The notes under the pieces are model-generated. The model worked only from the letters and a program-made list of their open reading frames with translations. It did no database searches and was not told the origin of the DNA. Below are positions 1-15,728 of a stretch of 64,000 nt of DNA, piece after piece (the stretch's first letter is position 1; each line of letters opens with the position of its first letter). Source of the DNA: Burkholderiales bacterium (GTDB taxonomy: Bacteria; Pseudomonadota; Gammaproteobacteria; Burkholderiales; Burkholderiaceae_C); contig JANXYH010000129.1 of assembly GCA_025350145.1 (NCBI GenBank), forward strand, positions 3,573 through 67,572. The letters are read 5' to 3'. The translations under genes were made by a program, and so were the position numbers.

Positions 1-20
1 GGCGGCGCTGTGAACCCGCG

Positions 21-1757
21 ATGACCACGCTGCTGACCCGCGATGTGCCGCCGCGCAGCGCCTACGCCCTGAGCCAGGCCGGCCTGCACCCGCTGCTGGC
101 GCAGTTGTTCGCGGCGCGCGGCCTGAGCTCGGCCGAGGACCTGGACGACAGCCTCGCCAGGTTGCTGCCGCCGGCCGAACTGAAGGGCGCGGCCGAGGCC
201 GCCAGGCTGCTCGCCGACACGATTGCCGCGCAGCGCCGGATCTGCATCGTCGCCGACTACGACTGCGACGGCGCCACCGCCTGCGCCGTCGCCCTGCGCG
301 GCCTGGCGATGCTCGGTGCCGCGCCGCAGACCCTGCGCTTCTGCGTGCCCGACCGCGCCGTCCATGGCTATAGCCTGACGCCGGCCATCGTCGACCTGGC
401 CCGCGCCGAGCATGCGCCCGATCTGCTGGTGACGGTGGACAACGGCATTGCCAGCCAAGCCGGCGTCGCCCATGCCCGCAGCTTGGGCATGCAGGTGCTG
501 GTGACCGACCACCACCTGCCGGCCGTCGATGGCGACGGCCGGGTGCTGCTGCCCGAGGCCGATGTCATCGTCGATCCCTCGCAGCCGGGTTGCGGGTTCG
601 CCAGCAAGGCGCTGGCCGGGGTCGGCGTGATGTTCTATGTGCTGCTGGCCACCCGCGCCGAGTTGCGCCTGCGCGGGCGCTTCGACGCCGCCAGCCAGCC
701 GCGCCTGGACGCCCTGCTCGACCTGGTCGCGCTGGGCACGGTGGCCGACGTGGTCAAGCTCGACGCCAACAACCGCCGGCTGGTCGCGCAGGGCCTCAAG
801 CGCATCCGCCAGGGCCGGATGCAGCCCGGCGTGGCGGCGCTGTTCACGGCCGCCGGGCGCCTGCCGCAGCGCGCCAGCGCCTTCGACTTCGGCTTTGCCT
901 TGGGGCCGCGCATCAATGCCGCCGGGCGGCTGTCGGACATGACCCTGGGCATCACCTGCCTGACCACCGACGACCCGGCCCAGGCCGCCGCGCTGGCCGG
1001 GCAGCTCGACGCCATCAACCGCCAGCGGCGTGCGGTCGAGGCCGACATGAAGCTGCAGGCCGAGGTGCTGCTGGCTCGGCTGCTGGCGACCCAGGGCGAC
1101 GACACCAGCGCACCGGCAGCGGTGGTGCTGTTCGACCCCGAATTCCATGAGGGCGTCGTCGGCATCGTCGCCGGCCGGCTCAAGGACCGGCTGAACCGCC
1201 CGACCTTCGTGCTGGCGCGTGGCCAGGACGGGCTGCTCAAGGGCTCGGGCCGCTCGATCGCCGGCTTCCATCTGCGCGACGCGCTAGACCTCGTGACCAA
1301 GCGCCATCCCAACCTGCTCAAACGCTTCGGCGGCCACGCCATGGCGGCGGGTTGCACGCTCGACCCGGCCGACCTGCCGACCTTTGCCGCCGGCCTGCAG
1401 CAGGTGGCCGCCGAGTGGCTCAGCCCGGCCCTGCTGGCGCGCCGGCTGGCCACCGACGGCCCGCTGGCGGCGCAATGGTTCAACCCGGCGACCATCGCCA
1501 CGCTCGACGCCCAGGTCTGGGGCCAAGGCTTCGAGGCGCCGCTGTTCTGCGACGAGATGGAGGTGGTGCAGCAACGCCTGGTCGGCGGCAAGCACCTCAA
1601 GCTCAGGCTGCGCCACGCCGGCACGCTGCGCGACGCAATCTGGTTCGGCCAGGTCGAGCCGCTGCCCGGCGCCACGGCGCGGCTGGCCTACCGCCTCAGC
1701 CTGGACGAGTTCCAGGGCCAGCCGCGGGTGCAACTGGTGATCGAGGCGCTGGGCTGA
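21..1757 (+). CDS. recJ: single-stranded-DNA-specific exonuclease RecJ
   Basis: 578-aa ORF starting at ATG 21. DHH-family motifs (IVADYDCDGATA, LVTVDNG, VTDHH) and a RecJ-like C-terminal OB region. Confidence 0.93.
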   Translation: MTTLLTRDVPPRSAYALSQAGLHPLLAQLFAARGLSSAEDLDDSLARLLPPAELKGAAEAARLLADTIAAQRRICIVADYDCDGATACAVALRGLAMLGAAPQTLRFCVPDRAVHGYSLTPAIVDLARAEHAPDLLVTVDNGIASQAGVAHARSLGMQVLVTDHHLPAVDGDGRVLLPEADVIVDPSQPGCGFASKALAGVGVMFYVLLATRAELRLRGRFDAASQPRLDALLDLVALGTVADVVKLDANNRRLVAQGLKRIRQGRMQPGVAALFTAAGRLPQRASAFDFGFALGPRINAAGRLSDMTLGITCLTTDDPAQAAALAGQLDAINRQRRAVEADMKLQAEVLLARLLATQGDDTSAPAAVVLFDPEFHEGVVGIVAGRLKDRLNRPTFVLARGQDGLLKGSGRSIAGFHLRDALDLVTKRHPNLLKRFGGHAMAAGCTLDPADLPTFAAGLQQVAAEWLSPALLARRLATDGPLAAQWFNPATIATLDAQVWGQGFEAPLFCDEMEVVQQRLVGGKHLKLRLRHAGTLRDAIWFGQVEPLPGATARLAYRLSLDEFQGQPRVQLVIEALG

Positions 1758-1806
1758 CGCCGCCCTGACTCCGCCGCCAGGGCGCTGGACGACAATCCCG
1801 GCCGCC

Positions 1807-2658
1807 ATGCTCAACGCCGACCTGCACTGCCACTCGACCTGTTCCGACGGCACCCTGGCGCCCGCCGCCGTGGCTGCGCTGGCGAGCCGGCAGGGGGTCG
1901 AGCTCTGGGCCCTGACCGACCACGACACGGTCGACGGCCTGGCCGAGGCCGCCGCCGCAGCGCAGCGGCTGGGCATGGGCTATCTGACCGGGGTCGAGGT
2001 CTCGGTGAGCTTTGCCGGCGAGACGGTACACATCGTCGGCCTGGGCTTTGACGCCGACGACGCGGCGCTGCGTGCCGGCCTGGCCAGCACCCGTGGTGGC
2101 CGGCAGGCGCGCGCCCTGGCCATGGCCGCCGGGCTGGCCGAGGTCGGCATCCACGGCGCGTTCGAGGGCGCCCTGCCCTATGTCGGCAACCCCGGGCTGA
2201 TCTCGCGCAGCCACTTGGCACGCTGGCTGGTGGCCAGCGGCGTCTGCGCCGACATGCCGGCGGTGTTCCGCCGCTACCTGGTCGAGGGCAAGCCTGGCTA
2301 TGTGCCGCACCGCTGGGCCGGGCTGGGCGACGCGGTGCGCTGGATCACCCAGGCCGGCGGCCAGGCGGTGATCGCCCACCCCGGCCGCTACAAGTTCTCG
2401 GCCAGCGCCGAATACGCCCTGTTCAGCGAGTTCGCGGCCCATGGCGGCCGCGGCGTAGAAGTCCAGACCGGCAGCCACGGCCCCGGCGCGGCCGCCAAGT
2501 ACGCCACGATGGCGCGTGAATTCAAGCTGCTGGCCTCGCGCGGCAGCGACTTTCACGACCCTGCCGAGAGCCGCACCGCCTTCGGCAGCCTGCCCGACCT
2601 GGCCGGCGACCTGACGCCGGTCTGGGAGGCGCTGGCCGAGCGCGTCGTGCAGCCTTGA
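1807..2658 (+). CDS. PHP-domain phosphoesterase (TrpH/YciV-like)
   Basis: 283 aa. The N-terminal ADLHCHSTCSDG and ALTDHD metal-binding motifs are typical of the PHP family. Confidence 0.8.
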   Translation: MLNADLHCHSTCSDGTLAPAAVAALASRQGVELWALTDHDTVDGLAEAAAAAQRLGMGYLTGVEVSVSFAGETVHIVGLGFDADDAALRAGLASTRGGRQARALAMAAGLAEVGIHGAFEGALPYVGNPGLISRSHLARWLVASGVCADMPAVFRRYLVEGKPGYVPHRWAGLGDAVRWITQAGGQAVIAHPGRYKFSASAEYALFSEFAAHGGRGVEVQTGSHGPGAAAKYATMAREFKLLASRGSDFHDPAESRTAFGSLPDLAGDLTPVWEALAERVVQP

Positions 2659-2722
2659 GCACGGGGCTGGGGGCGCCGCTGGCGCCGATCCGCTGGTCGA
2701 TAAGCGCTTGAAACTGCCCGGC

Positions 2723-3328
2723 TCAGTTGCGGCGCTGCAAGCCCTGCAACTCGGCCAGCGTATTGGCGTTGGCAAAGGCGCCGGGGTCGTCGAACAGCAC
2801 GCTGGCGCAGCCCAGGCTGGCGGTCCAGCGGTCGATCCTGCGCTGGCCGGACTGGACGAAAGCCAGCAGGCTGTCGCAGACCCGCCGGTGCATCAGGCAG
2901 AACACCGGCTGCGGCTGCACCGCGCCCTGCTCCAGGGTGGCGGCGATGGCGACATCGGCGGCCTGTGCGGCCATCGCCGCCGCCAGCCTGGCGACCAGGT
3001 CGAGCGGGAAGTTCGGGCTGTCGCAGGGCACGGTGACGAGGTAGTCGGTGCTGCAATGCGTCAAACCGGCGAGGAATCCGGCGAGCGGGCCGGGCTGGTC
3101 GGGCAAGGCGTCGGGCCAGACCGGCGCGCCCATCGCGGCATAGGCCTCGAGGTTGCGGTTGGCATTGAGCATCAACTGGCCGACCTGTGGCCGCAGGCGC
3201 TGCAGGGCATGTTCGACCAGCGGCCGGCCCTGGTGGCTTTGCAGGCCCTTGTCGACCCCGCCCATGCGGCTGCCGCGGCCGCCAGCCAGGACGATGCCGG
3301 TGATGTCCTCGGGCGCGATCAGGGTCAT
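2723..3328 (-). CDS. mobA: molybdenum cofactor guanylyltransferase MobA
   Basis: Only the last 201 codons of the 472-aa ORF are MobA-like ([28 protein letters not shown]). The internal ATG at 3328 was chosen because the upstream part lies antisense to fdhD. Confidence 0.85.
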
Positions 3329-3464
3329 GGCGGGTGGGCGCAGCAGTTCAGGGGCGACGATCTTCACATGCCGGCGCGGTCGCCCGGCGCTGGGAAATAA
3401 TTCGCCCCTTGGGCACCGCCATTCGGCTGCCCGCCAGCGGGCATGCCCGAGAGCACCCCCGCCC

Positions 3465-4382
3465 ATGACCCGCCCCCTGCCCGCGATCAACCCCAGCGCC
3501 TGTGAGGTGGCCGCCGAACTGGCCCTGGTCAGCGGCGCGCCACGGCTGACCAGCGCCCGGGTGCCGCTGCTGCGCCAGATCACTGTGCTGGACGAATACG
3601 GCAGCCAGCGCCAGATCGCCATCCCCGCCGAGCGTGCGCTGACGGTGTACGTCGACCGCCAGGAACTGGTGACGCTGATGACCCTGGGCGCGGCGCCGGA
3701 ATGGCTGGTGCTGGGCTGGCTGTGCAACCAGCGGTTGATCGGCGAGGTGTCCGAGATCGAGTCGGTCACGGTCGATTGGGAGGTCGGCGCGGCGGCGGTC
3801 AAGACCCACGCCGGCATCGCCAACCTGGCCGAGCGGACCGCGCGCCGGGTCGTGACCAGCGGCTGCGGCCAGGGCACGGTCTTCGGCGACGTGCTGGCGC
3901 AGGCGGCAGAACTGCGTTTGCCCGACCCTGCCCTGGCACGCATCCGCCAATCGACCCTGTACGCGGTGCTGGAGCAAATGCGCCTGCGCAACAGCATCCA
4001 CCGCCAGGCCGGTTCGGTCCATGGCTGCGCGCTGTTCTGCGGCACCCGCATGCTGCTGGCGGTCGAGGACGTGGGCCGGCACAACGCGATCGACACCATC
4101 GCCGGCTGGATGGCGCTGCATGGCCTGGGCGGCAACGACAAGCTGTTCTACACCACCGGGCGCCTGACCAGCGAGATGGTGCTCAAGGCGGCGCACATGG
4201 GTGTGCCCATCGTGGTCTCGCGCAACGGCATCACCGCCATGGGCCATGGCCTGGCCGAGCAACTCGGCATGACCTTGTTCGGCCGCGCCGCCAACCGCCA
4301 CTTCATTTGCTACAGCGGCCTGGCCCGGTTTGACGCCGAGCCTGAACCGCAGCGCCCGACGGTGCGCGTCGCCATCGGCTGA
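3465..4382 (+). CDS. fdhD: formate dehydrogenase accessory sulfurtransferase FdhD
   Basis: 305 aa from the internal ATG at 3465. Motifs SGCGQGT, HGCALF and [12 protein letters not shown]. Divergent from mobA. Confidence 0.88.
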
Positions 4383-4399
4383 GCCCGGCCGCTGCCGCC

Positions 4400-5035
4400 A
4401 TGTCCCAGTACTTCGAAATTCATCCCGACAACCCGCAGCCTCGGCTGATCCGGCAGGCGGCGCAGTTGCTGCATGCCGGCGGCGTCTGCGCGCTGCCCAC
4501 CGATTCGAGCTATGCGCTGGCCTGCCACCTCGACGACAAGGTCGCCGCCGAGGCGCTGCGGCAATTGCGCCAGGTCGACGCCAAACACCACCTGACCCTG
4601 CTCTGCCGCGACCTGTCGGAGCTGGCCAGCTACGCCCGCGTCGACAACCGCCAGTACCGGCTGTTGAAACTGGCCACGCCAGGGCCCTACACCTTCATCC
4701 TGCAGGCCAGCAAAGAGCTGCCGCGGCGGCTGTCGCACCCCTCGCGGCGGACCATCGGCCTGCGCGTGCCGGCCCACCGCGTAACCCAGGCGCTGCTGGC
4801 CGAACTTGGCCAGCCGTTGCTGGCCACGACCTTGATCGCGCCCGGCCAGACCGAGCCTATGAACGAGCCGCAGCAGATCCGCGCCCACTTTCAGCATCGC
4901 CTGGCGGCCGTGCTCGATGCCGGCGCCTGCCGGCGCGAGGCCACCACCGTGATCGACTACAGCGGCGACACGCCGCTGGTGGTGCGCCAGGGCTGGGGCG
5001 ACCTGGCGCGGCTGGGCTTGCAGGCTCCGGCCTAG
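4400..5035 (+). CDS. YrdC/Sua5-domain protein (YciO-like, L-threonylcarbamoyladenylate synthase family)
   Basis: 211 aa. LPTDSSYALAC and the LATPGPYTFIL / IGLRVP pattern match the YrdC fold. Confidence 0.8.
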   Translation: MSQYFEIHPDNPQPRLIRQAAQLLHAGGVCALPTDSSYALACHLDDKVAAEALRQLRQVDAKHHLTLLCRDLSELASYARVDNRQYRLLKLATPGPYTFILQASKELPRRLSHPSRRTIGLRVPAHRVTQALLAELGQPLLATTLIAPGQTEPMNEPQQIRAHFQHRLAAVLDAGACRREATTVIDYSGDTPLVVRQGWGDLARLGLQAPA

Positions 5036-6294: not shown

Positions 6295-6392
6295 TGGCGG
6301 AAGGACGTGGGAGTCGAACCCACCAGACACGCTTGCGGCGCGTCTCGCCGGTGTTGAAGACCGGGCGCCCCACCGGGGTGCGATGGCCTTCC
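6295..6392 (-). tRNA. selC: tRNA-Sec (anticodon UCA)
   Basis: The reverse complement reads GGAAGGCC...CCGGU-CUUCAAC-ACCGG...long variable arm...GUGGGUUCGACUCCCAC-GUCCUUCC-G-CCA, 98 nt in total. It has an 8-position acceptor stem, a UCA anticodon in a 7-nt loop, a long extra arm and an encoded CCA. It lies 15 nt after the selB stop. Confidence 0.85.
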
Positions 6393-6407: not shown

Positions 6408-8366
6408 TTAGCATGGCGGCTCGGCACAGCATGGCGGCTCGGCCGCAGCGGTCAACGGCGGCATGGCGGCCACGCTCGGCCAGTGCCTCTGGCCGTCAAA
6501 GCGCGTCAGGCCGGCGCGGTCGAGGAACTCCAGCACCTGCACCGTCAGGTTGCGGCCGATGCCGCTGCGGTCGCGGTAGGCAGCGGCGTCGAAGCCACCG
6601 TCGGCCGACTCGGCCGCCAGGGTCTGTGCCAGCGCCACCAGCCCGGGCAGGGTCTGCGGCAGGTAGCAGCGGTTGGGCGCGATCCGCAGCAGCAGGCCCA
6701 GCCTGGCGGCGCGCTGGACGAAGGCCTGCAGCGTGGCCACCGGCAGACCAAGCTGTGCCGCCAAGTCGCCGGCGATGGGCGGACGCAGGCCGGTGTCGCC
6801 CAGCGCCGCATGGACGCGGTCGAGCAGCGCCTGGTCGGCCTGGCCGAGCACGGCGCGGTGGCTGGCCAGGCGCAGGCACAGGCCATCGCGGCAGACCTCG
6901 CCGCTGGCCAGGGCCTGGGCCAGCAGCGCCCGCAGCAAATCCGGCTGGCAGCGCAGTTGCAGCAACTGGCGCAACTCGCCCTCGCCCGGGCCTGAGCTGT
7001 CGGCCTGGCGGCTGTGCCAGTCGGCCAGCGCCTGGCGCAGCCGCGCGCACCAGCCCTGCCAATGCCCGGCCGACTGGGCCAGTGGGCCCGCCGGGGTGGC
7101 CAGCACCACCACGCCCGGCAGGTGCTGCAGCGCGGCGGCGGCCGGCGGCGCCAGGTTCCAGGCCAGCGCAAAGCGGTTCAGCGCCAGGCCATGCGGGGCC
7201 TCGACCAGCAGGGCCGACAGCGCTGCGGCCGCGTCCGGCTGGCCCCAGGCCGCCAGTTCGGCCAGGCGCTGCGGCCGCAGCCCACCGCGCGGCGGCGCAA
7301 ACGGGTCCAGCACCACCCCGCCGCCGATCACCCGCCGCGCCGCCGCGTCGCGCAGGATGAAGCGGTCGCCGCGGAACGCCGAGACCGGCTTGTCCAGCCG
7401 CAGTTGTGCCAGGCCGGCGCTGCCGGCCGCGATGGCCGGGCCGAACAGCAGGCTGACCCGGACCGCCACCGCCGACGCCCCCAGATGCAGCAGCAGCGAT
7501 GCACGCGAGGCCAGGGGGCGTGGCTCGCTGGCCAGCACTTCCAGGCGCACCGCCAGGCGTTCGGTGGGGGCATGCGCGGGCGGCGCCAGCAGCCAGTCGC
7601 CGCGTTGCGGCTCGGCCCGGTGCAGGTCGACCCCGGTCAAGTTCAGGGCGCTGCGCTGGCCGGCCCGGGCAAGGGTCGCCGGCAAGCCCATGGTGTGGAT
7701 GCCACGCACCCGCGCCAGGCTGCCGCGCGGCGCCAGGCAAACTTCGTCGCCGACCCGGACCTGGCCCGACAGGACCGCGCCGGTGACGACCCTGCCGGCG
7801 CCGGCCAGCGCGAAGCTGCGGTCCAGCGACATGCGGAAATGGCCCTCGACCGGCCTGGCACTGTGGCCCAGCGCGAGCCGGCCCAGCGCCTCGCGCAGCG
7901 CCGCAACGCCCCGGCCGGAGGGCGTATCGAGTGCCCAGACCGGCGCCTGCGGCCAGGCGGTGGTGGCCAGCAGTGCCGCCACTTCGGCCCGCGCCTGCGC
8001 CAGCCGCGCCGGCGCGACCCGGTCGATCTTGGTCAGCGCCACCACGCATTCGGGCACCGCCAGCAGGCCCAGGACGGCCAGATGCTCCAGCGTCTGCGGC
8101 ATCGGCCCGTCGTCGGCCGCGACCACCAGCAGGGCGACGTCGATGCCGGCCACCCCGGCCAGCATGTTGCGCATGAAGCGTTCATGGCCGGGCACGTCGA
8201 TGAAACCGACCGGTTCGGCCGCGCCCAGGTCGGCGTAGGCAAAGCCCAGGTCGATCGACATGCCGCGGCGCTTCTCCTCGGCCAGCCGGTCGGTGTCGAC
8301 TGCGGTCAGGGCCTTCACCAGGCTGGTCTTGCCATGGTCGACATGGCCGGCGGTGGCGACGATCAC
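6408..8366 (-). CDS. selB: selenocysteine-specific translation elongation factor SelB
   Basis: 652 aa from GTG 8366 ([29 protein letters not shown]-like TKID). The GTG overlaps the selA TGA (GTGA). The C-terminal half is non-GTPase, as expected for a SECIS-binding region. Confidence 0.9.
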
Positions 8367-9778
8367 GGCTGGGTGAACAAGGCCACGAAGGCCGCCTCGT
8401 CGGCGGCCTGCGCCGGGCCGTCGCCAACAGCGGCCAGGCAGCGCAAATCCAGCCACAGTGCGCCCTCGGCGGTGCGCCCGACCAGCGGCAGGGGCAGCGC
8501 CCGCAGGCGCCTGGCCAGTGCCGCCAGCGCCCGGCCGGCATGGCGCGCGGGGCCGGCCGGGGTCAGGCGCAGGGCGGCGCTGGGCAGCAGCTCGGTCGGC
8601 ATCGCGCCGCTGCCGATCTGGCTGTCGCAGGCGACGACATCGACCCGGCCGGCGTCGCCCCACCAGGCCGCCAGGGTCGGCTGCAAACGCCGCGCCAGGG
8701 CATCGATCTCGGCCAGCGGCCGGGTCAGCAGGCGCAGCGTCGGCAGCCGCTGGGGCAGGCGCTCGGGGTCAGCGTAGAGCGCCAGCACGGCCTCGAGCGC
8801 GGCCAGGCTGAGCTTGTCGCAGCGCAGTGCGCGCTTCAGTGGGTTCTTCTGCAAACGGGCAACCAGCTCGGCGCGGCCGACGATCAGCCCGGCCTGCGGC
8901 CCGCCGAGCAGCTTGTCGCCGCTGAAGCAGACCAGGTCGGCGCCACTGGCCAGCGTCGCGGCCACGGTCGGCTCGGCCGGCAGGCCCAGGCCGGCCAGGT
9001 CGATGAGCGCGCCGCTGCCCAGGTCGACGACCAGCGGCAGGCCGTGGGCGCGGCACAGCCCGGCCAGGGCCGACTCGGCGACGCTGGCGGTGAAGCCCTC
9101 GATCCGGTAGTTGCTGGTGTGTACCTTCAGCAGCAGGGCGGTGTTGGGCGTGATCGCCTCGGCGTAGTCGGCCAGGTGGGTGCGGTTGGTGGTGCCGACC
9201 TCACGCAGCCGGCAGCCGGCCTGGGCCATGATCTCGGGCAGGCGAAAAGCGCCGCCGATCTCGACCAGTTCGCCGCGCGAGACGATCACCTCGCGCCGCT
9301 GGCGGCCGCCGGCCAGGCTGGCCAGGATCAGCAGCAGCGCGGCGGCGTTGTTGTTGACCACCGCCGCCGCCTCGGCGCCGCTGAGTCGCCTCAGCCAGGC
9401 CTGGACATGGTCATCGCGGTCGCCACGGCCGCCCTGGTCCAGATCAAACTCCAGGTTGCAGCCGCCCCTGGCCACCTGCTGCAGCCGGGCGATGGCCTCG
9501 GCCGGCAGGACGGCGCGGCCCAGGTTGGTGTGCAGCACCGTGCCGCTGAGGTTCAAGACCGGGCGCAGCGACGGCGCCAGCAGTTGGCGCAAGCGTGCCG
9601 CCAGCGCCGCCGCTAGGCTTGCCCGGTCCAGCGCCGCGCCGTTGCTGCGCCGCGCTGCCAGTTCGTCGCGCACCGCCGCCAGCACCAGCGGCCGGCCATG
9701 GTCGGCGACCAGGGCGGCGATCTCGGCCCAGGCCAGGACCTTGTCGACCGCCGGTGGCCGCTGCGCCGGGCTCAGCAT
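8363..9778 (-). CDS. selA: L-seryl-tRNA(Sec) selenium transferase SelA
   Basis: 471 aa. It has a SelA-like N-terminus and a PLP-lysine context ([13 protein letters not shown]). Confidence 0.92.
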
Positions 9779-9802: not shown

Positions 9803-10321
9803 TCAGTCGCCCGAGCGCAGCCGCCGCAGGATCTCGGGCAGGGCCAGGTCGGCCAGCGCGCGCATCTCGGCGTCGCTGCGGTCCTGGATCGGATGGGCGA
9901 CAAAGACCATCGCCGGGTCGAAGCCCAGCGACAGCGATTGCGCAGCCGCAGCCTGGATGAACCCGGTCGAGGCGACACCGACGCCTGGGATGCCACGACT
10001 TTCAAGATCCGCGATGTCATGCATACAGCACGACGTACACGAGCCTCAGTCGGCCAGCCCTTCGACCACGAGTTGCACCTGCGCCGCGATCTCTTGGCGC
10101 AGCGCGGTCGGTGCCGGCCGGGTGTAGGTCGGCTTGCGGTAGCGCTTGACGGCGATGCCCTGGGCCGTCAACTGGGCGTCCAGGCGGTCGAGAAAAATAT
10201 TGCCGCGCGGCTTGGAGATGTCAAGCAGGCCGACCGTCAGCCCAGCCAGGCTGCGTGGCCGCGCCAGCAGGGCGCGCGCCAGCGGCGAACGCTCCGAGCT
10301 TGGGTCCATCAAGTAACTCAT
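9803..10321 (-). CDS. selenoprotein with in-frame UGA (U-G-S-C motif; UGSC-containing protein family), function unknown
   Basis: Track ORFs 10046..10321 and 9803..10024 are in the same frame. They are separated only by TGA (10046..10048) plus 7 sense codons. The read-through product is ...VVEGLAD-U-GSCTSCCMHDIADLESRGIPG... (172 codons). A hairpin follows the UGA, and the gene sits 24 nt upstream of selA. Confidence 0.75.
10009..10042 (-). promoter_or_regulatory. candidate bacterial SECIS hairpin downstream of the UGA
   Basis: On the mRNA the upper stem is GUCGUG/CAUGAC (6 bp, one G-U). It has a 7-nt loop CUGUAUG and starts 11 nt after the UGA. The lower stem is UCGUG/CGCGG across a small internal loop. 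This was folded by eye only. Confidence 0.5.
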
Positions 10322-11790
10322 GTGCCGATCTCCTTGGACACTGGCGTCGAGCCGACCGGGCCAGAGGCCGCCCAGCCGGCGATGACCGCCGAAAACAGGC
10401 CGGCATTGCCGCCGGCCCGCACGATGATGAGGCCGCCGGGGCGGAACTTGGGCACGGGTTTGCCCGCCATGGCCAGCGGCAGGCCTTCGGCTATGCCACC
10501 CGCCCCGACGACCAACTCGTCGCCATTGAGCAGCAGCAACTCCTCCAGCGCAGTGCGCAGGCGCGCCTTGCTCCAGCCGGCGTCGATGAAGACCCGGCTG
10601 TGCTCGGGGCTGACGACCAGCAGCGCGTCGCCGGCCATGGCCAGCTTGGCGTTGTCGACCGTGCGCAGGCTGGCGGCAAAGCTGCGCAGCAGCGACTCGG
10701 GCGTGCGCGACTTCTGGTCGACGATGCCTTGCACACCTTCGCCGGCAAACAAGGTCACGGTCGAGGCGTTGGCGGCAAAGCCGCGTTCGACCGACAGCGG
10801 CTCCCAGGCAGGATCCTCGTTCTCGGCGAAGCAGAAGCTGTATTTGCCGGGCGTGCCCAGGGTCGAGCGGTCGATCTCACCCGGCCGGCCACCGCCGACA
10901 TTGCGGATCACGAGTTGCAGCGCCCGGCCAATCGTGGCGTTGGCGCGGTGCCCCTGGCCGAGCGCGTTGACGCCGGAGTTGACGCCGACCGCCCGCCCCA
11001 ATGGGCCGTTGATGACCACCACCGGCCCGGCAAACATGGTGGTGCAGAGCAGGCCATGCATGCCGAACTCGTCGATCAGCGCGGCCTCGACTGCCGCCAG
11101 CACCAAGGGCAGGTACTCGGGCTTGCAGCCGGCCATGACGGCGTTGATCGCCACCTTCTCGACGGTGCAGGGCGCCAGGTCGGGCGGGATCAGGCCGATC
11201 AACTCGTCGCCGCGGCGGGTGGTGCCGGCGAGCATGCGCAGCACCCGCTGGGGCGTGGGTGGCACCAGCGGCAGGCCATCGCTCCAGCCACGCGCGTAGC
11301 AGGCCTCGATCTCGTCCTCGGCCTCGCCCAGCGCCACCTGGCGGGCCGCCAGGCCGGTGTCGCCGAAACGCACCAGCAAATCCTCGGCCACGCCCGGGTC
11401 GAGCGTCTTCGAGGCACAGCCGGCACGCCAGTCGGGCAGCGCCGCGCCCAGGCCGGGCCGGCCGCTGAGCCGCTGCCAGTCGCCGCGCTGCCAGCCGTAG
11501 GTGCGCCCAACCTCACGGCCGGCCTCGACCCGGATCAGGGTCGGCACGAATTCGATCCGCAAACGATAGGAATGCGCCAGGTCGGCGTCGAACCCCCGGC
11601 CAGCCAGGCCGGCGGCAAAGTCGCTGTCGTCCTGGACCCAGACCGTCAGCGGCAATTCGCCATCGGCCAACTCGGCCAATAGCGGTTCGACCAGGGTACA
11701 GGTCGGGCAATCGCGCTTGGCGACCACAATCAGGCCGTCGGGCATCGCGGGCAGGGCAGGCAGGGCAGGCAGGGCAGGCATGGCGGGCAT
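10318..11790 (-). CDS. thioredoxin-like (CPTC) domain fused to a large uncharacterised domain; partner of the UGSC selenoprotein
   Basis: About 490 aa from ATG 11790 (alternative ATGs at 11781 and 11745). The N-terminus reads LIVVAKRDCPTCTLVEPLL, a Trx-fold CxxC. It is followed by about 370 aa that I cannot assign (GWSDGLPLVPPTPQRV..., AINAVMAGCKPEYLP). Its stop overlaps the selenoprotein ATG (ATGA). The upstream part of the 790-aa ORF is antisense to the aldolase gene. Confidence 0.72.
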   Translation of the reverse strand: MPAMPALPALPALPAMPDGLIVVAKRDCPTCTLVEPLLAELADGELPLTVWVQDDSDFAAGLAGRGFDADLAHSYRLRIEFVPTLIRVEAGREVGRTYGWQRGDWQRLSGRPGLGAALPDWRAGCASKTLDPGVAEDLLVRFGDTGLAARQVALGEAEDEIEACYARGWSDGLPLVPPTPQRVLRMLAGTTRRGDELIGLIPPDLAPCTVEKVAINAVMAGCKPEYLPLVLAAVEAALIDEFGMHGLLCTTMFAGPVVVINGPLGRAVGVNSGVNALGQGHRANATIGRALQLVIRNVGGGRPGEIDRSTLGTPGKYSFCFAENEDPAWEPLSVERGFAANASTVTLFAGEGVQGIVDQKSRTPESLLRSFAASLRTVDNAKLAMAGDALLVVSPEHSRVFIDAGWSKARLRTALEELLLLNGDELVVGAGGIAEGLPLAMAGKPVPKFRPGGLIIVRAGGNAGLFSAVIAGWAASGPVGSTPVSKEIGT

Positions 11791-11898
11791 CGTGGCATTT
11801 TCGGCCGCAATCGCCCTGTCCCGACCGGGACAGCCGACCGCGCTGCTGCGGCTTTGCCGGTGATACGCTTTGCGCCACCCACTGCTGCCGACACCGCC

Positions 11899-12681
11899 AT
11901 GAACCAACCCCAAGCCCTGGACAGCCGCCCCGCCGACATCAGCACCACCGAATGGCAGGCGCGCTGCGACCTGGCGGCGCTGTACCGCATCGTCGAGCAC
12001 TTCGGCTGGACCGACATCCTGGCCACCCATATGTCGCTGCGCCTGCCGGACGAGCCCGAGGCCTTCCTGATCAACCACTACGAGGAGATGTTCCACGAGA
12101 TCACCGCCTCCAGCCTGATCAAGATGAGCCTGGATGGCCGGGTGCTGGGCCGACAGGGCCGTTTCAACTCGGCCGGGCTGACGATCCACAGCGGCGTCTA
12201 CAAGGCCAGGCCGGACGTGAATTGCGTGATGCACACCCACACCCGGGCTGGCGCCGGGGTATCGCTGATCCGCAATGGCCTGCGCCCGATCAGCCAGGAC
12301 GCGCTGATGGTGCTCGACGAGGTGGCCTACCACGACTACGGCCTGCCGGCCAGCGCCCAGGAGTGCGAGGCCTTGGGCGTCACCTGCCAGGCGGGCAACT
12401 GCGTGGTGCTGCTCAACCACGGCCTGTTGAGCTGCGCTGAGACCGTCCACGGCGCGCTGTTCCGGATGTACACGCTGGAGCGCGCCTGCGAGCTGGAACT
12501 GGTCTCGCGCCAGCTCGGGCAGGCACCGGTGATGGTCGCCCAGGAGGTCGTCGACGGCATCTCCAAGTCCATGCGCAAGTGGCGCCAGAAGCCCGACTTC
12601 GGCCTGCCCGAATGGAATGCGCTGCTGCGTCTGATCGACCGCAAGGTGGCCTCTGGCCAGCAGGACGACTACCGCTGCTGA
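11899..12681 (+). CDS. class II aldolase/adducin-domain protein
   Basis: About 260 aa from ATG 11899 (the track start 11854 is also possible). Motifs GWTDILATHMSLR, NCVMHTHT and VLLNHGLL. Confidence 0.85.
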   Translation: MNQPQALDSRPADISTTEWQARCDLAALYRIVEHFGWTDILATHMSLRLPDEPEAFLINHYEEMFHEITASSLIKMSLDGRVLGRQGRFNSAGLTIHSGVYKARPDVNCVMHTHTRAGAGVSLIRNGLRPISQDALMVLDEVAYHDYGLPASAQECEALGVTCQAGNCVVLLNHGLLSCAETVHGALFRMYTLERACELELVSRQLGQAPVMVAQEVVDGISKSMRKWRQKPDFGLPEWNALLRLIDRKVASGQQDDYRC

Positions 12682-13784: not shown

Positions 13785-14264
13785 ATGTTTTTCGTCCCCG
13801 CACCCCGCCGCGCTGCCCGTTTCGCCCACCCCCTGGCCGCATGGTTTGACGAGCGCCTTCTGGACACCTTGCCCGACCCGGCACCTGACCGCCGGGATGC
13901 CGCCGCCAGCGGCGCGGCGTCGGCGCAGCGCAGCCCGGCGCTGGAGCTGCGCGACGACGACGCCGGCTACACCGTCCAGCTCGACATGCCCGGGGTCGGC
14001 AAGGACGCCATCCAGGTCGCCATCGACGGCCGCGATGTCACGGTCCAGACCGGCGCACCGAGCCCAGCGCCTGCCGACGCCGCCGCCGCGCCGCCGCAGC
14101 GGGTGGTCTACAGCGAACGCCGCCAGGCCAGCTATGCCCGCAGCTTCAGGCTGCCCACCGAGATCGACCAGGCCGGCTCATCCGCCCGGCTGGAAAACGG
14201 TGTGCTGACGCTGACCCTGGCCAAGAAGGTGGCCCCGCGGGCAGCGCAGCTGACCGTCAACTGA
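13785..14264 (+). CDS. Hsp20/alpha-crystallin family small heat-shock protein
   Basis: 159 aa. Alpha-crystallin-domain pattern (YTVQLDMPGVGKDAIQVAIDGRDVTV ... ARLENGVLTLTLAKK). Confidence 0.88.
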   Translation: MFFVPAPRRAARFAHPLAAWFDERLLDTLPDPAPDRRDAAASGAASAQRSPALELRDDDAGYTVQLDMPGVGKDAIQVAIDGRDVTVQTGAPSPAPADAAAAPPQRVVYSERRQASYARSFRLPTEIDQAGSSARLENGVLTLTLAKKVAPRAAQLTVN

Positions 14265-14385
14265 CTCAGGGCAGCGCAGCTGACCGTCAACTGACTCAGG
14301 GCAGCGCAGCTGACCGTCAACTGACCCAGGGCGGCGCAGCTGACCGTCAACTGACTCAGGGCGGCGCAGCTGACCGTCAACTGAT
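14241..14385. repeat. 30-bp tandem repeat, about 4.8 copies
   Basis: The unit is gcagcgcagctgaccgtcaactgactcagg, at 14241, 14271, 14301, 14331 and 14361 with 1-2 substitutions per copy. The first copy holds the hsp20 stop and the last holds the tsaD stop. Confidence 0.95.
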
Positions 14386-15411
14386 CTGGTCCAGCGCCCA
14401 GCGCGGCCGCACGTCAAAGGCGTAGTCCTTGGTCGCTGCGGCCGCGCCGCTTTGCAGCCGCATTGCCGCCGCCAGGGCGATCATGGCGCCGTTGTCGGTG
14501 CACAGCGCCAGCGCCGGGTAGTGGACGCGAAAGCCCGATCGCAGCGCCGCCGCGTCGAGCTGCCGACGCAACTCGGCATTGGCGCCTACGCCGCCCGAGA
14601 CCACCAGCCGTGTCAGGCCAGTGGCCTTGAGCGCGGCCAGTGACTTCTTGACCAGCACCTCGACGATTGCCGCCTGGGCAGAGGCCGCCAGATCGGCGAG
14701 TTGCTGGGTGCTCGGCGCTGGCCCGAGCTTGCGGTGCTGGACCATCACGGCGGTCTTCAGTCCGGCAAAGGAGAAATCCAGGTCGCCGCTGTGCAGCAAG
14801 GGCCGCGGCAGCTTGAAGGCCCCGGCATCGCCCTGCGTCGCCAGCTGCGCCAGCGCCGGACCGCCCGGATAGCCCAGGCCCAGCAGTTTGGCGCTCTTGT
14901 CGAAGGCCTCGCCGGCCGCGTCGTCAATCGTCTCGCCGAGCAAGTGGTAGTCGCCCACCGCCGCAACTCGCATCAACTGGGTGTGGCCGCCCGAGACCAG
15001 CAGGGCGACGAAGGGGAATTGCGGCGCGTCGGCCGAGAGGAAGGGCGACAGCAGGTGGCCCTCAAGGTGGTGCACGCCCAGCGTTGGCCGGTCCAGCGCC
15101 GCAGCCAGGGCACAGGCCACCCCGGCGCCGACCAGCAGCGCGCCGGCCAGGCCCGGCCCGCGGGTGAAGGCGACCACGTCGATTTGGCGCAGACCGATGC
15201 CAGCCTCGGCCAGCACCTGGCGGGTCAGCGGCAGGACCCGCCGAATGTGGTCGCGCGAGGCCAGCTCGGGCACCACGCCGCCGTAATCGGCGTGCATCGC
15301 GACCTGGCTGTGCAGGGCCTGCGCCAGCAAGCTCGGGATCGCCGGCCCGGTCGCGCGCACCAGCGCGACGCCCGTTTCGTCACAGGAGGATTCGATGCCC
15401 AGGACATGCAT
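14377..15411 (-). CDS. tsaD: tRNA N6-adenosine threonylcarbamoyltransferase TsaD
   Basis: 344 aa from ATG 15411 ([18 protein letters not shown]..., [24 protein letters not shown]). Confidence 0.93.
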
Positions 15412-15479
15412 GGGCCGGCAGTGTAGGCAGGTGGCTGTTGCCCGCGACCCACACCGCGGGCCACCGGCCACAGCGCGGT

Positions 15480-15728
15480 TCAACTGTCGAGGCGGTCGCT
15501 GCGCCCATCCGGCGCGACTTCGGCCGCGTCGATGTTGGCGTCGAAGGCGCTCAACTCCTGACCCAAAGCGGGCGCGTTCGGGTCAAGCGCCAGCAGCGGC
15601 TTGTCCAGCGGACGGCAGATGTGCCGTTGCAGGCGCTCCAGGCGGCCGGAGCGCTCGATCTGGGCCAGCACGGCCTGCGGATCGATCATCATTGCAAACG
15701 GGTTGGCGCTGCGTGGCAGGTATTGCAT
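15480..15728 (-). CDS. hypothetical protein (82 aa)
   Basis: ATG with GGAG 8 nt upstream. GC3-rich codons are consistent with host coding. I recognise no family. Confidence 0.5.

Follow-up and report, generated by a model that had tools for sequence, protein, structure and literature searches.

What does a short reading frame encode when it ends at TGA, resumes in the same frame beyond it and lies directly upstream of the genes for selenocysteine (Sec) insertion, and what does its product do? The question is raised by a stretch of 64,000 nucleotides (nt) from a Burkholderiales bacterium (contig JANXYH010000129.1 of assembly GCA_025350145.1, positions 3,573 to 67,572), here called the window, in which two open reading frames on the minus strand are divided by a single TGA codon and followed by selA, selB and the gene for tRNA-Sec. 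Our comparisons indicate that the two frames are one gene for a selenoprotein of the UGSC family, and that genes of this family are nearly always found beside, or fused to, a gene for a large domain that in the window is joined to a thioredoxin (Trx) domain.

An in-frame TGA predicted to encode selenocysteine

9803..10321, minus strand: UGSC-family selenoprotein gene (translation, NF041046 / PF24696, alignment with Cys homologues)
10046..10048, minus strand: TGA predicted to be read as selenocysteine, codon 92 (read directly from the sequence)
10004..10047, minus strand: stem-loop resembling a bacterial selenocysteine insertion sequence (SECIS) (RNAfold and comparison of 75 sequences)

The gene at 9803-10321 is a single frame of 172 codons (about 18 kDa) whose sole internal stop is the TGA, and a strong AAGGAG lies 8 nt ahead of its ATG. 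Translation across the TGA reads ...QLVVEGLAD-U-GSCTSCCMHDIADLE... (also written VVEGLAD*GSCTSCCMHD), with the core motif D91-U92-G-S-C95 followed by T-S-C98-C99. When the protein was scored with U replaced by C in the query, it reached 147.2 bits against NCBIfam NF041046, "UGSC family (seleno)protein" (curated cut-off, 125), and 132.1 bits against Pfam PF24696 (cut-off, 25). The family made its first appearance, under the name "UGSC-containing protein", in selenoproteome surveys by Zhang and Gladyshev (PMC1976440, PMC2398784). An earlier note on this DNA had taken the two open reading frames as one frame broken only by the TGA at 10046..10048 and had placed the product in the UGSC family; translation of 9803-10321 confirms the first claim, and scores above both cut-offs bear out the second.

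Searching the databases with UGSC returned two types of match: gene calls of 94 residues that end exactly at ...LAD, and rarer full-length proteins. The 94-residue calls are evidently Sec forms cut at the UGA, and in public records the gene appears as two separate calls of about 94 and 72 amino acids (aa). The alignment with Cys-containing homologues that the note had proposed as a check places Cys at the U position, with D-C-G-S-C in that column in 12 full-length proteins, and Cys-type genes carry TGC or TGT at the Sec codon (for example, at loci L009 and L012). Two other full-length homologues, P0121 and P0122, have W or R in the Sec column; these residues probably reflect either a point change or a TGA that was translated with a different genetic code, and not true functional Trp or Arg variants.

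Among 77 orthologous loci from different GTDB species, tblastn matched both halves of the gene in every one, with coding conservation flanking the TGA. The Sec codon is TGA in 76 of the 77 loci, which rules out the sequencing error that the note had named as a possible refutation, and TAG in the remaining one. Distant UGSC genes from metagenome loci (described below) have TGA in all 61 cases scored, so that Sec is used in approximately 137 of the 138 UGSC genes surveyed (77 species loci and 61 metagenome loci), suggesting that selenium is needed for catalysis. In the Global Ocean Sampling (GOS) metagenome, the published counts are 255 Sec forms and 21 Cys forms (PMC2398784). The TAG codon lies at 9662-9664 of L075, from Candidatus Blastococcus massiliensis AP3, a member of the Geodermatophilaceae. 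In this family UAG is recoded to Sec by means of tRNA-Sec(CUA), and UGSC genes are named among the clients (PMC5330540); the TAG of L075 matches this already published recoding. By all these comparisons, the window gene is a genuine UGSC-family selenoprotein gene and a typical member of a known family.

The note had also suggested a covariance analysis of the hairpin downstream of the TGA, and the outcome was mixed. The apical helix (7 bp, GUCGUGC-UGUAU-GCAUGAC, 10016-10034) begins 11 nt past the UGA, the lower helices reach back to the UGA, and RNAfold gives the window hairpin -33.7 kcal/mol. Across the 75 sequences the apical helix is 93% paired, with a helix of 7-8 bp and a loop of UGUAU or GUN, and three pairs show compensatory changes (for example, C-G to U-A and G-C to A-U) that arise through synonymous codon changes. 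The whole proposed structure is 83% paired, a figure that falls to 27-44% once the 3' partners are slid by 1-3 columns, and in the Cys-type gene of L009 the apical helix is lost. Two observations tell against a firm reading of the hairpin: the window hairpin reaches a z-score of only -1.18, and conservation of the structure is confounded by the highly conserved coding sequence, the shuffle control being only marginal. Rfam, which holds no bacterial SECIS family, matched only the tRNA-Sec. The RNA evidence is thus supportive of Sec insertion and not independent proof of it.

The partner protein and its pairing with UGSC

10318..11790, minus strand: partner gene, encoding a thioredoxin domain, a PGCGS linker and a large uncharacterised domain (translation)
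11461..11742, minus strand: thioredoxin-fold domain, aa 17-110 (PDB profile search, Foldseek, motif conservation)
11416..11418, minus strand: codon of Cys125 in the P-G-C-G/A-S linker (alignments)
10321..11343, minus strand: large domain, aa ~150-490, about 330 aa (HMMER, alignments, model)
11125..11127, minus strand: codon of Cys222 in an A-G-C motif at a helix N-terminus (alignments, codon verified in the sequence)

The co-occurrence of UGSC with the partner, which the earlier note had marked for a survey, proved close to obligate. The partner was found at 80 GTDB species loci, 79 of which have sequence downstream, and UGSC adjoins it in 78 of the 79: in 77, both UGSC halves lie immediately downstream, and in 1 the first half lies at the contig end. 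One contig ends at the partner itself, leaving L061 as the only locus truly without UGSC. The partner stop and the UGSC start share 4 nt in 54 loci, as they do in the window. The loci span at least 10 phyla and include Beta-, Gamma-, Alpha- and "Delta"-proteobacteria, Nitrospirales, Chloroflexota, Actinomycetota, Myxococcota, Spirochaetes, Acidobacteria, Latescibacteria and others, with partner identities of 56-81% across phyla. More than 8000 close homologues of the partner are present in databases, named only "thioredoxin family protein" or "hypothetical".

In an exhaustive HMMER search the large domain was represented by 5928 clusters (50% identity), in which it occurs fused to Trx, as a stand-alone protein (~350 aa) or doubled (~715 aa); in P0368 it is fused to a peroxiredoxin (Prx)/ResA-like domain, and in P0461, P0485 and P0451 it lies C-terminal to a UGSC domain in natural fusions. 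We used Trx-less relatives of the large domain as queries to fetch 80 metagenome loci, in which 61 UGSC genes could be scored. A UGSC-like gene lies directly upstream or downstream, or is fused, in 62 of the 80, and the D-U-G-S-C core is invariant in the 61 scored. Because Trx-less relatives adjoin UGSC genes and UGSC-large-domain fusions exist, the conserved partner of UGSC is, on these survey data, the large domain and not thioredoxin, the latter being an accessory fusion of the window's subfamily. This alters the proposal of a dedicated relay between a Trx CxxC and the U-x-x-C pair: the pairing stands as near-obligate, and Trx provides at most the input half. Three metagenome contigs (L099, 3344-6544; L111, 73-2973; L117, 1381-4453) carry a Sec-UGSC-large-domain fusion and then a stand-alone large-domain gene; a second Sec-UGSC gene follows in L099 and L111, and none was detected in L117. 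These tandem paralogous sets suggest hetero-oligomeric versions of the system. Over 85 loci, the pair has no conserved neighbours beyond selA and selB. The next commonest are a coenzyme A (CoA)-transferase III (11 of 85 loci), an ATP-binding cassette (ABC) ATPase (9 of 85) and a short-chain dehydrogenase/reductase (SDR; 8 of 85), which look like lineage synteny.

The link between UGSC and the large domain is not entirely new, having been glimpsed in 2008, when "UGSC/Unknown_1" fusion proteins in the GOS metagenome received a brief mention (Zhang and Gladyshev 2008, PMC2398784, Fig. S1A). The large domain is probably the "Unknown_1" of that work, given that UGSC fusions to the large domain of the window's partner exist (P0461, P0485, P0451). 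Both a UGSC fusion and at least one conserved Cys, the features described for Unknown_1, are seen in the large domain, a match made through the fusion and not residue by residue against the published alignment. The near-obligate operon pairing is new here and was not reported in PMC2398784.

The partner frame has 490 codons from its first ATG, and its TGA stop overlaps the UGSC ATG as ATGA, so that the coupling to an upstream 490-aa protein described in the earlier note holds for the 4-nt overlap and less well for the length. Homologues start at M16 (MPDGLIVV..., ATG at 11745), and the 15 codons ahead of it are a tandem repeat; for both reasons the true product probably has 475 aa and not 490. 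This 9-nt repeat (GGCAGGGCA, 4.4 copies, window positions 11750-11789) encodes M-P-A-M-(PAL)n before M16 and is absent from homologues; it is either a low-complexity N-terminal extension or an untranslated leader, and its length could vary.

The note's description of the partner as a CPTC thioredoxin fold plus a large domain that it could not assign was borne out by Pfam, NCBIfam and PDB searches. In the AlphaFold2 (AF2) model of the partner (predicted local distance difference test [pLDDT] 84.3, predicted template modelling [pTM] score 0.83), C28-P-T-C31 sits at the N-terminus of helix 1 (helix 29-42), and V82-P83-T84 forms the loop at the cis-Pro position; C28, C31, P83 and T84 are invariant in 78 partner sequences. 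A PDB profile search with the partner found thioredoxins (best E, 0.005), with an alignment to thioredoxin H that places both motifs correctly, and Foldseek found many thioredoxins (probability 0.98-1.0, target-normalised template modelling [TM] score 0.46-0.74). The Pfam Thioredoxin hidden Markov model gave no match to the window partner and weak matches to 19 of 78 homologues, and Thioredoxin/TraF was weak in 19-23 of 78. Every form with a fused Trx or Prx domain has Cys125 in the linker, and the Trx-less forms lack it.

Across its family the large domain has the invariant residues D171, P174, P178, C222, G262-P263, N284, R289 and E323, C222 being the only Cys invariant across the entire family. 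The loop at 299-316 (GGGRPGEIDRSTLGTPGK) is strongly conserved and modelled at low confidence; a role as a mobile loop in the active site or in docking is possible. Searches of Pfam and NCBIfam at E values up to 10 left the large domain unmatched in the window protein, 78 orthologues and 16 Trx-less relatives, the only matches being weak ones to thioredoxin, and PDB sequence profiles gave only thioredoxins or noise. By Foldseek, the large domain comes closest to class I Fe-S fumarate hydratases (E 3e-4, probability 0.94), with a TM-score of ~0.21 and a root-mean-square deviation (rmsd) of 12-17 Å. The Fumerase and Fumerase_C Pfam profiles gave no match at E 10, and hhalign of the large domain against Escherichia coli FumA gave a probability of 0.14%. 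With this probability, a single invariant Cys and the cluster Cys absent, homology to fumarate hydratase was rejected; the likeness is an unconfirmed resemblance.

A proposed two-component enzyme and competing explanations

As a structural model of UGSC we used an AF2 prediction of the Cys-type homologue P0125, which is 52% identical to the window protein. The model (pLDDT 92.9) has five β-α units that form a (βα)5 flavodoxin-like sandwich, and its nearest PDB folds, among the top 50 Foldseek matches listed, are flavodoxins, TIR domains and DJ-1, with TM-scores of 0.4-0.5. The UGSC protein thus models as a flavodoxin-like fold, and the published suggestion of a thioredoxin-like fold was rejected on the basis of this (βα)5 model. 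The Sec column falls where strand 3 gives way to helix 3, and such a site is a classic one for a nucleophile. Only D-U-G-S-C is universal in the family: in the metagenome loci many members have G or W in place of the third Cys, and the fact that this residue can be replaced suggests a two-residue redox pair. A reading of U-GSC-TSC-C as a CxxCxxC cluster motif loses force, since conservation over the family does not extend to the third and fourth Cys. A relationship of UGSC to GrdB or PrdB was rejected: the profile PF07355 (GRDB) gave no match at E <=10 among 15 UGSC proteins, and GrdB and PrdB structures were absent from the listed top 50 Foldseek matches of the UGSC model.

On balance, the pair is probably a two-component enzyme, with UGSC as its small selenium-bearing subunit, the large domain as its large subunit and a Trx-driven thiol/selenol relay between them. 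Reducing equivalents would enter at C28/C31 of the fused thioredoxin, and the linker Cys125 may pass electrons on to the Sec92/Cys95 pair of UGSC. This pair would then reduce or resolve the invariant Cys222 of the large domain, or act together with it. The large domain would bind a small-molecule substrate, possibly an organic acid; this weak hint comes from the invariant Arg, Asn, Glu and Asp and from occasional nearby tripartite ATP-independent periplasmic (TRAP) transporters. The overall logic would be that of a Trx-driven reductase such as methionine sulfoxide reductase (Msr), ArsC or the glycine and proline reductases, and the fused Trx or Prx-like domain with an intact CxxC suggests that dithiol exchange takes place.

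Several considerations weigh against this scheme. Which way and in what sequence the relay runs, what C125 does and whether Sec meets the substrate are all points that we infer. The neighbours of the pair differ by lineage and give only faint hints of a substrate (TRAP transporters, CoA-transferase III, SDR). The five genes from the partner to tRNA-Sec probably form one transcription unit, as judged by spacing and synteny alone, and reviews up to 2026 still list UGSC as uncharacterised.

A substrate-cleaving selenoenzyme of the proline/glycine-reductase type is plausible though unlikely, and it carries the most weight among the alternatives. Sec92 would here attack the substrate directly, giving a selenoether or selenenyl intermediate that Cys95 would resolve to a selenylsulfide for re-reduction by the Trx domain, and Sec would not be a relay to C222. 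The U-x-x-C motif and the layout of small selenoprotein, large partner and thiol reductant are those of PrdB/PrdA and GrdB/GrdE (motif table of PMC2398784), and a residue that is Sec almost without exception is easier to explain as a catalytic nucleophile than as a simple shuttle. Binding of a carboxylate would suit the invariant Arg, Asn, Glu and Asp of the large domain, and TRAP-type organic-acid transporters lie near some loci. However, the profile search with PF07355 was negative for the 15 UGSC proteins at E 10, the listed top 50 Foldseek matches of either model include no PrdA/PrdB or Grd structures, the invariant C222 is left without a role, and the host lineages are mostly aerobes, unlike Stickland-type reducers.

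It is quite improbable that Sec92, Cys95 and Cys222 instead serve as ligands of a shared metal or Fe-S site in a hydro-lyase-like or metal-handling enzyme. The large domain does have [4Fe-4S] class I fumarate hydratases as its best structural matches (E 3e-4, probability 0.94), the U-x-x-C-x-x-C-C of the window resembles a cluster motif, and exactly three invariant thiol/selenol residues are spread over two obligately paired proteins. Nevertheless, the structural match is poor (TM ~0.21, rmsd 12-17 Å), as is that to the FumA profile (probability 0.14%), the three cluster Cys of fumarate hydratase have no counterpart, the last two Cys of the UGSC motif vary over the family, and the fused Trx/Prx-like domain with its intact CxxC points to dithiol exchange.

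The sel cassette and known systems

8363..9778, minus strand: selA, L-seryl-tRNA(Sec) selenium transferase (TIGR00474, 550.7 bits)
6408..8366, minus strand: selB, Sec-specific elongation factor (TIGR00475, 363 bits)
6295..6392, minus strand: tRNA-Sec (selC), anticodon UCA (ARAGORN; Rfam RF01852, 63.9 bits, E 1.3e-11)

Partner, UGSC, selA, selB and tRNA-Sec follow one another over about 5.5 kb with overlaps or gaps of at most 24 nt. Between the UGSC stop (9803-9805) and the selA ATG at 9778 are 24 nt; selA and selB share a GTGA, in which the selA stop and the GTG start of selB overlap; and tRNA-Sec lies 15 nt past the selB stop. The tight packing of the selenoprotein gene with the insertion machinery, 24 nt upstream of selA, was already described in the earlier note and is upheld here, with no terminator-like site between 11790 and 6295. 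The order partner-UGSC-selA-selB(-tRNA-Sec) recurs in Aquabacterium, Oxalobacteraceae, Rhodoferax, Marinobacter, Halopseudomonas, Pseudohongiella, an Ectothiorhodospiraceae metagenome-assembled genome (MAG) and others. This sel-linked order is found in about 19 of the 77 loci, in 11 of them with tRNA-Sec after selB, and all share EGLAD-U-GSCTSCC. Of the 77 species loci, 59 are without a sel gene within 8 kb; the linkage therefore characterises one clade and not the family as a whole, and the most fitting reading is that of a client gene placed beside its machinery.

That the pair instead serves selenium metabolism (trafficking, selenide delivery or detoxification feeding SelD/SelA) is very doubtful. 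Adjacency to selA-selB-tRNA-Sec in the window and in the ~19 species loci speaks for it, as does a SelD fusion that follows the cassette in L013; against it, the 59 species loci and the metagenome loci show that a nearby sel gene is no requirement, a Sec-requiring protein would be an odd supplier for Sec synthesis, and a client selenoprotein gene beside sel genes is the simpler reading. The remaining explanation, which takes the TGA for a genuine stop, a lesion in a pseudogene or a sequencing error between two short unrelated frames, has in its favour only the split of public gene calls into ~94 and ~72 aa and is effectively refuted by the comparative data: TGA occupies this codon in ~137 independent loci, flanked on both sides by conserved coding sequence, the rare non-Sec forms have Cys there, a conserved hairpin follows and the Sec machinery is adjacent.

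Some loci hold features of separate interest. In L013 (Ectothiorhodospiraceae MAG JAFIFU010000001.1), a split gene upstream of the cassette (3234-4448) has an in-frame TGA (…VLLPV-U-PHCT…) and a faint GRDB (PF07355) match, and is probably a GrdB/PrdB-like selenoprotein gene; the SelD fusion at this locus is a Pyr_redox_2-SelD fusion downstream of tRNA-Sec (10199-12285). L019, a MAG labelled Candidatus Cybelea sp., carries at 1-4532 a 74%-identical Burkholderiales-type partner/UGSC pair with divergent selA-selB adjoining, which reflects either a cassette transferred between phyla or faulty binning. Within the window, selA, selB and tRNA-Sec adjoin UGSC, and we found no selD, no second selenoprotein candidate and no compositional anomaly of a recent island. 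By its best matches, the source organism belongs to Burkholderiales allied to Aquabacterium, Rubrivivax and Caldimonas. An FdhD/NarQ-family gene (3153-4382, plus strand, 409 codons) lies 2 kb beyond tRNA-Sec and has an unusually long N-terminal extension, the Pfam match covering only residues 159-392; it hints at a formate dehydrogenase, possibly another selenoprotein, outside the window. A 30-bp tandem repeat (14239-14384, 4.9 copies, 97% identity) lies in the spacer before tsaD (14377-15483, minus strand); it starts in the last codons of an HSP20-family gene (13785-14264) and repeats the 3' end of that gene (…AQLTVN-stop) five times.

Tentatively, UGSC and the large domain could constitute an unrecognised and widespread class of two-subunit selenoenzyme, one in which Sec is essentially obligatory and whose fold and chemistry are absent from Pfam and PDB. 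If this is so, the class would be a new selenium-dependent reductase or Sec-ligated metallo-enzyme, it would comprise more than 5900 large-domain clusters (50% identity) from at least 10 phyla, mostly of aerobes, and the five-gene cassette of the window would be a self-sufficient, transferable module. UGSC is among the most abundant selenoprotein families of aquatic and soil metagenomes and has been functionally unexplained since its listing in 2007-2008; the survey turns this orphan small protein into a defined two-component system open to study. The window cassette is a natural expression unit with matched SelB, SECIS-like element and tRNA, and since cultured strains such as Halopseudomonas pachastrellae JCM 12285 and Pseudohongiella sp. 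O18 carry the same cassette, knock-outs, labelling and reconstitution are feasible. For annotation, the 94-aa and 72-aa UGSC pieces would be better called as one gene, and a dedicated model is warranted for the partner family, at present filed under "thioredoxin family protein".

Compared with systems already described, the window gene is closest to the UGSC family itself, with which it shares the D-U-G-S-C position, the use of Sec and the freshwater/soil proteobacterial setting in which the family is abundant, and it has no feature that sets it apart from typical members. In place of the "UGSC/Unknown_1" fusions (PMC2398784), the window has separate, coupled genes, with the large domain fused to thioredoxin instead. 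The nearest functional analogy is with PrdA/PrdB and GrdE/GrdB, which likewise combine a small U-x-x-C selenoprotein with a larger substrate-binding partner and are recycled by dithiols or thioredoxin. They differ in showing no detectable homology of sequence or fold; in addition, there is no sign of a pyruvoyl group, the window partner has its own Trx domain, and the hosts of UGSC are mostly aerobes. Trx-dependent relay reductases (MsrA/MsrB-Trx fusions such as PilB, Trx-coupled ArsC, and peroxiredoxins) resemble the window partner in having a Trx-fold CxxC beside a catalytic domain and one invariant Cys, and Trx-coupled ArsC of the low-molecular-weight protein tyrosine phosphatase type is also built on a flavodoxin-like scaffold. 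Here, however, the catalytic domain is unrelated, and the resolving pair would be carried by a separate selenoprotein subunit. The fold of class I (Fe-S) fumarate hydratase and tartrate dehydratase is the weak best structural match of the large domain, which is not a member of that group and, unlike fumarate hydratase, has no cluster-binding Cys triad. Finally, selenoprotein genes clustered with selA-selB-selC, such as the formate dehydrogenase/sel clusters, similarly place a client beside its insertion machinery; in the window, by contrast, the client is UGSC with its partner, in an order that recurs in several beta- and gammaproteobacterial genera.

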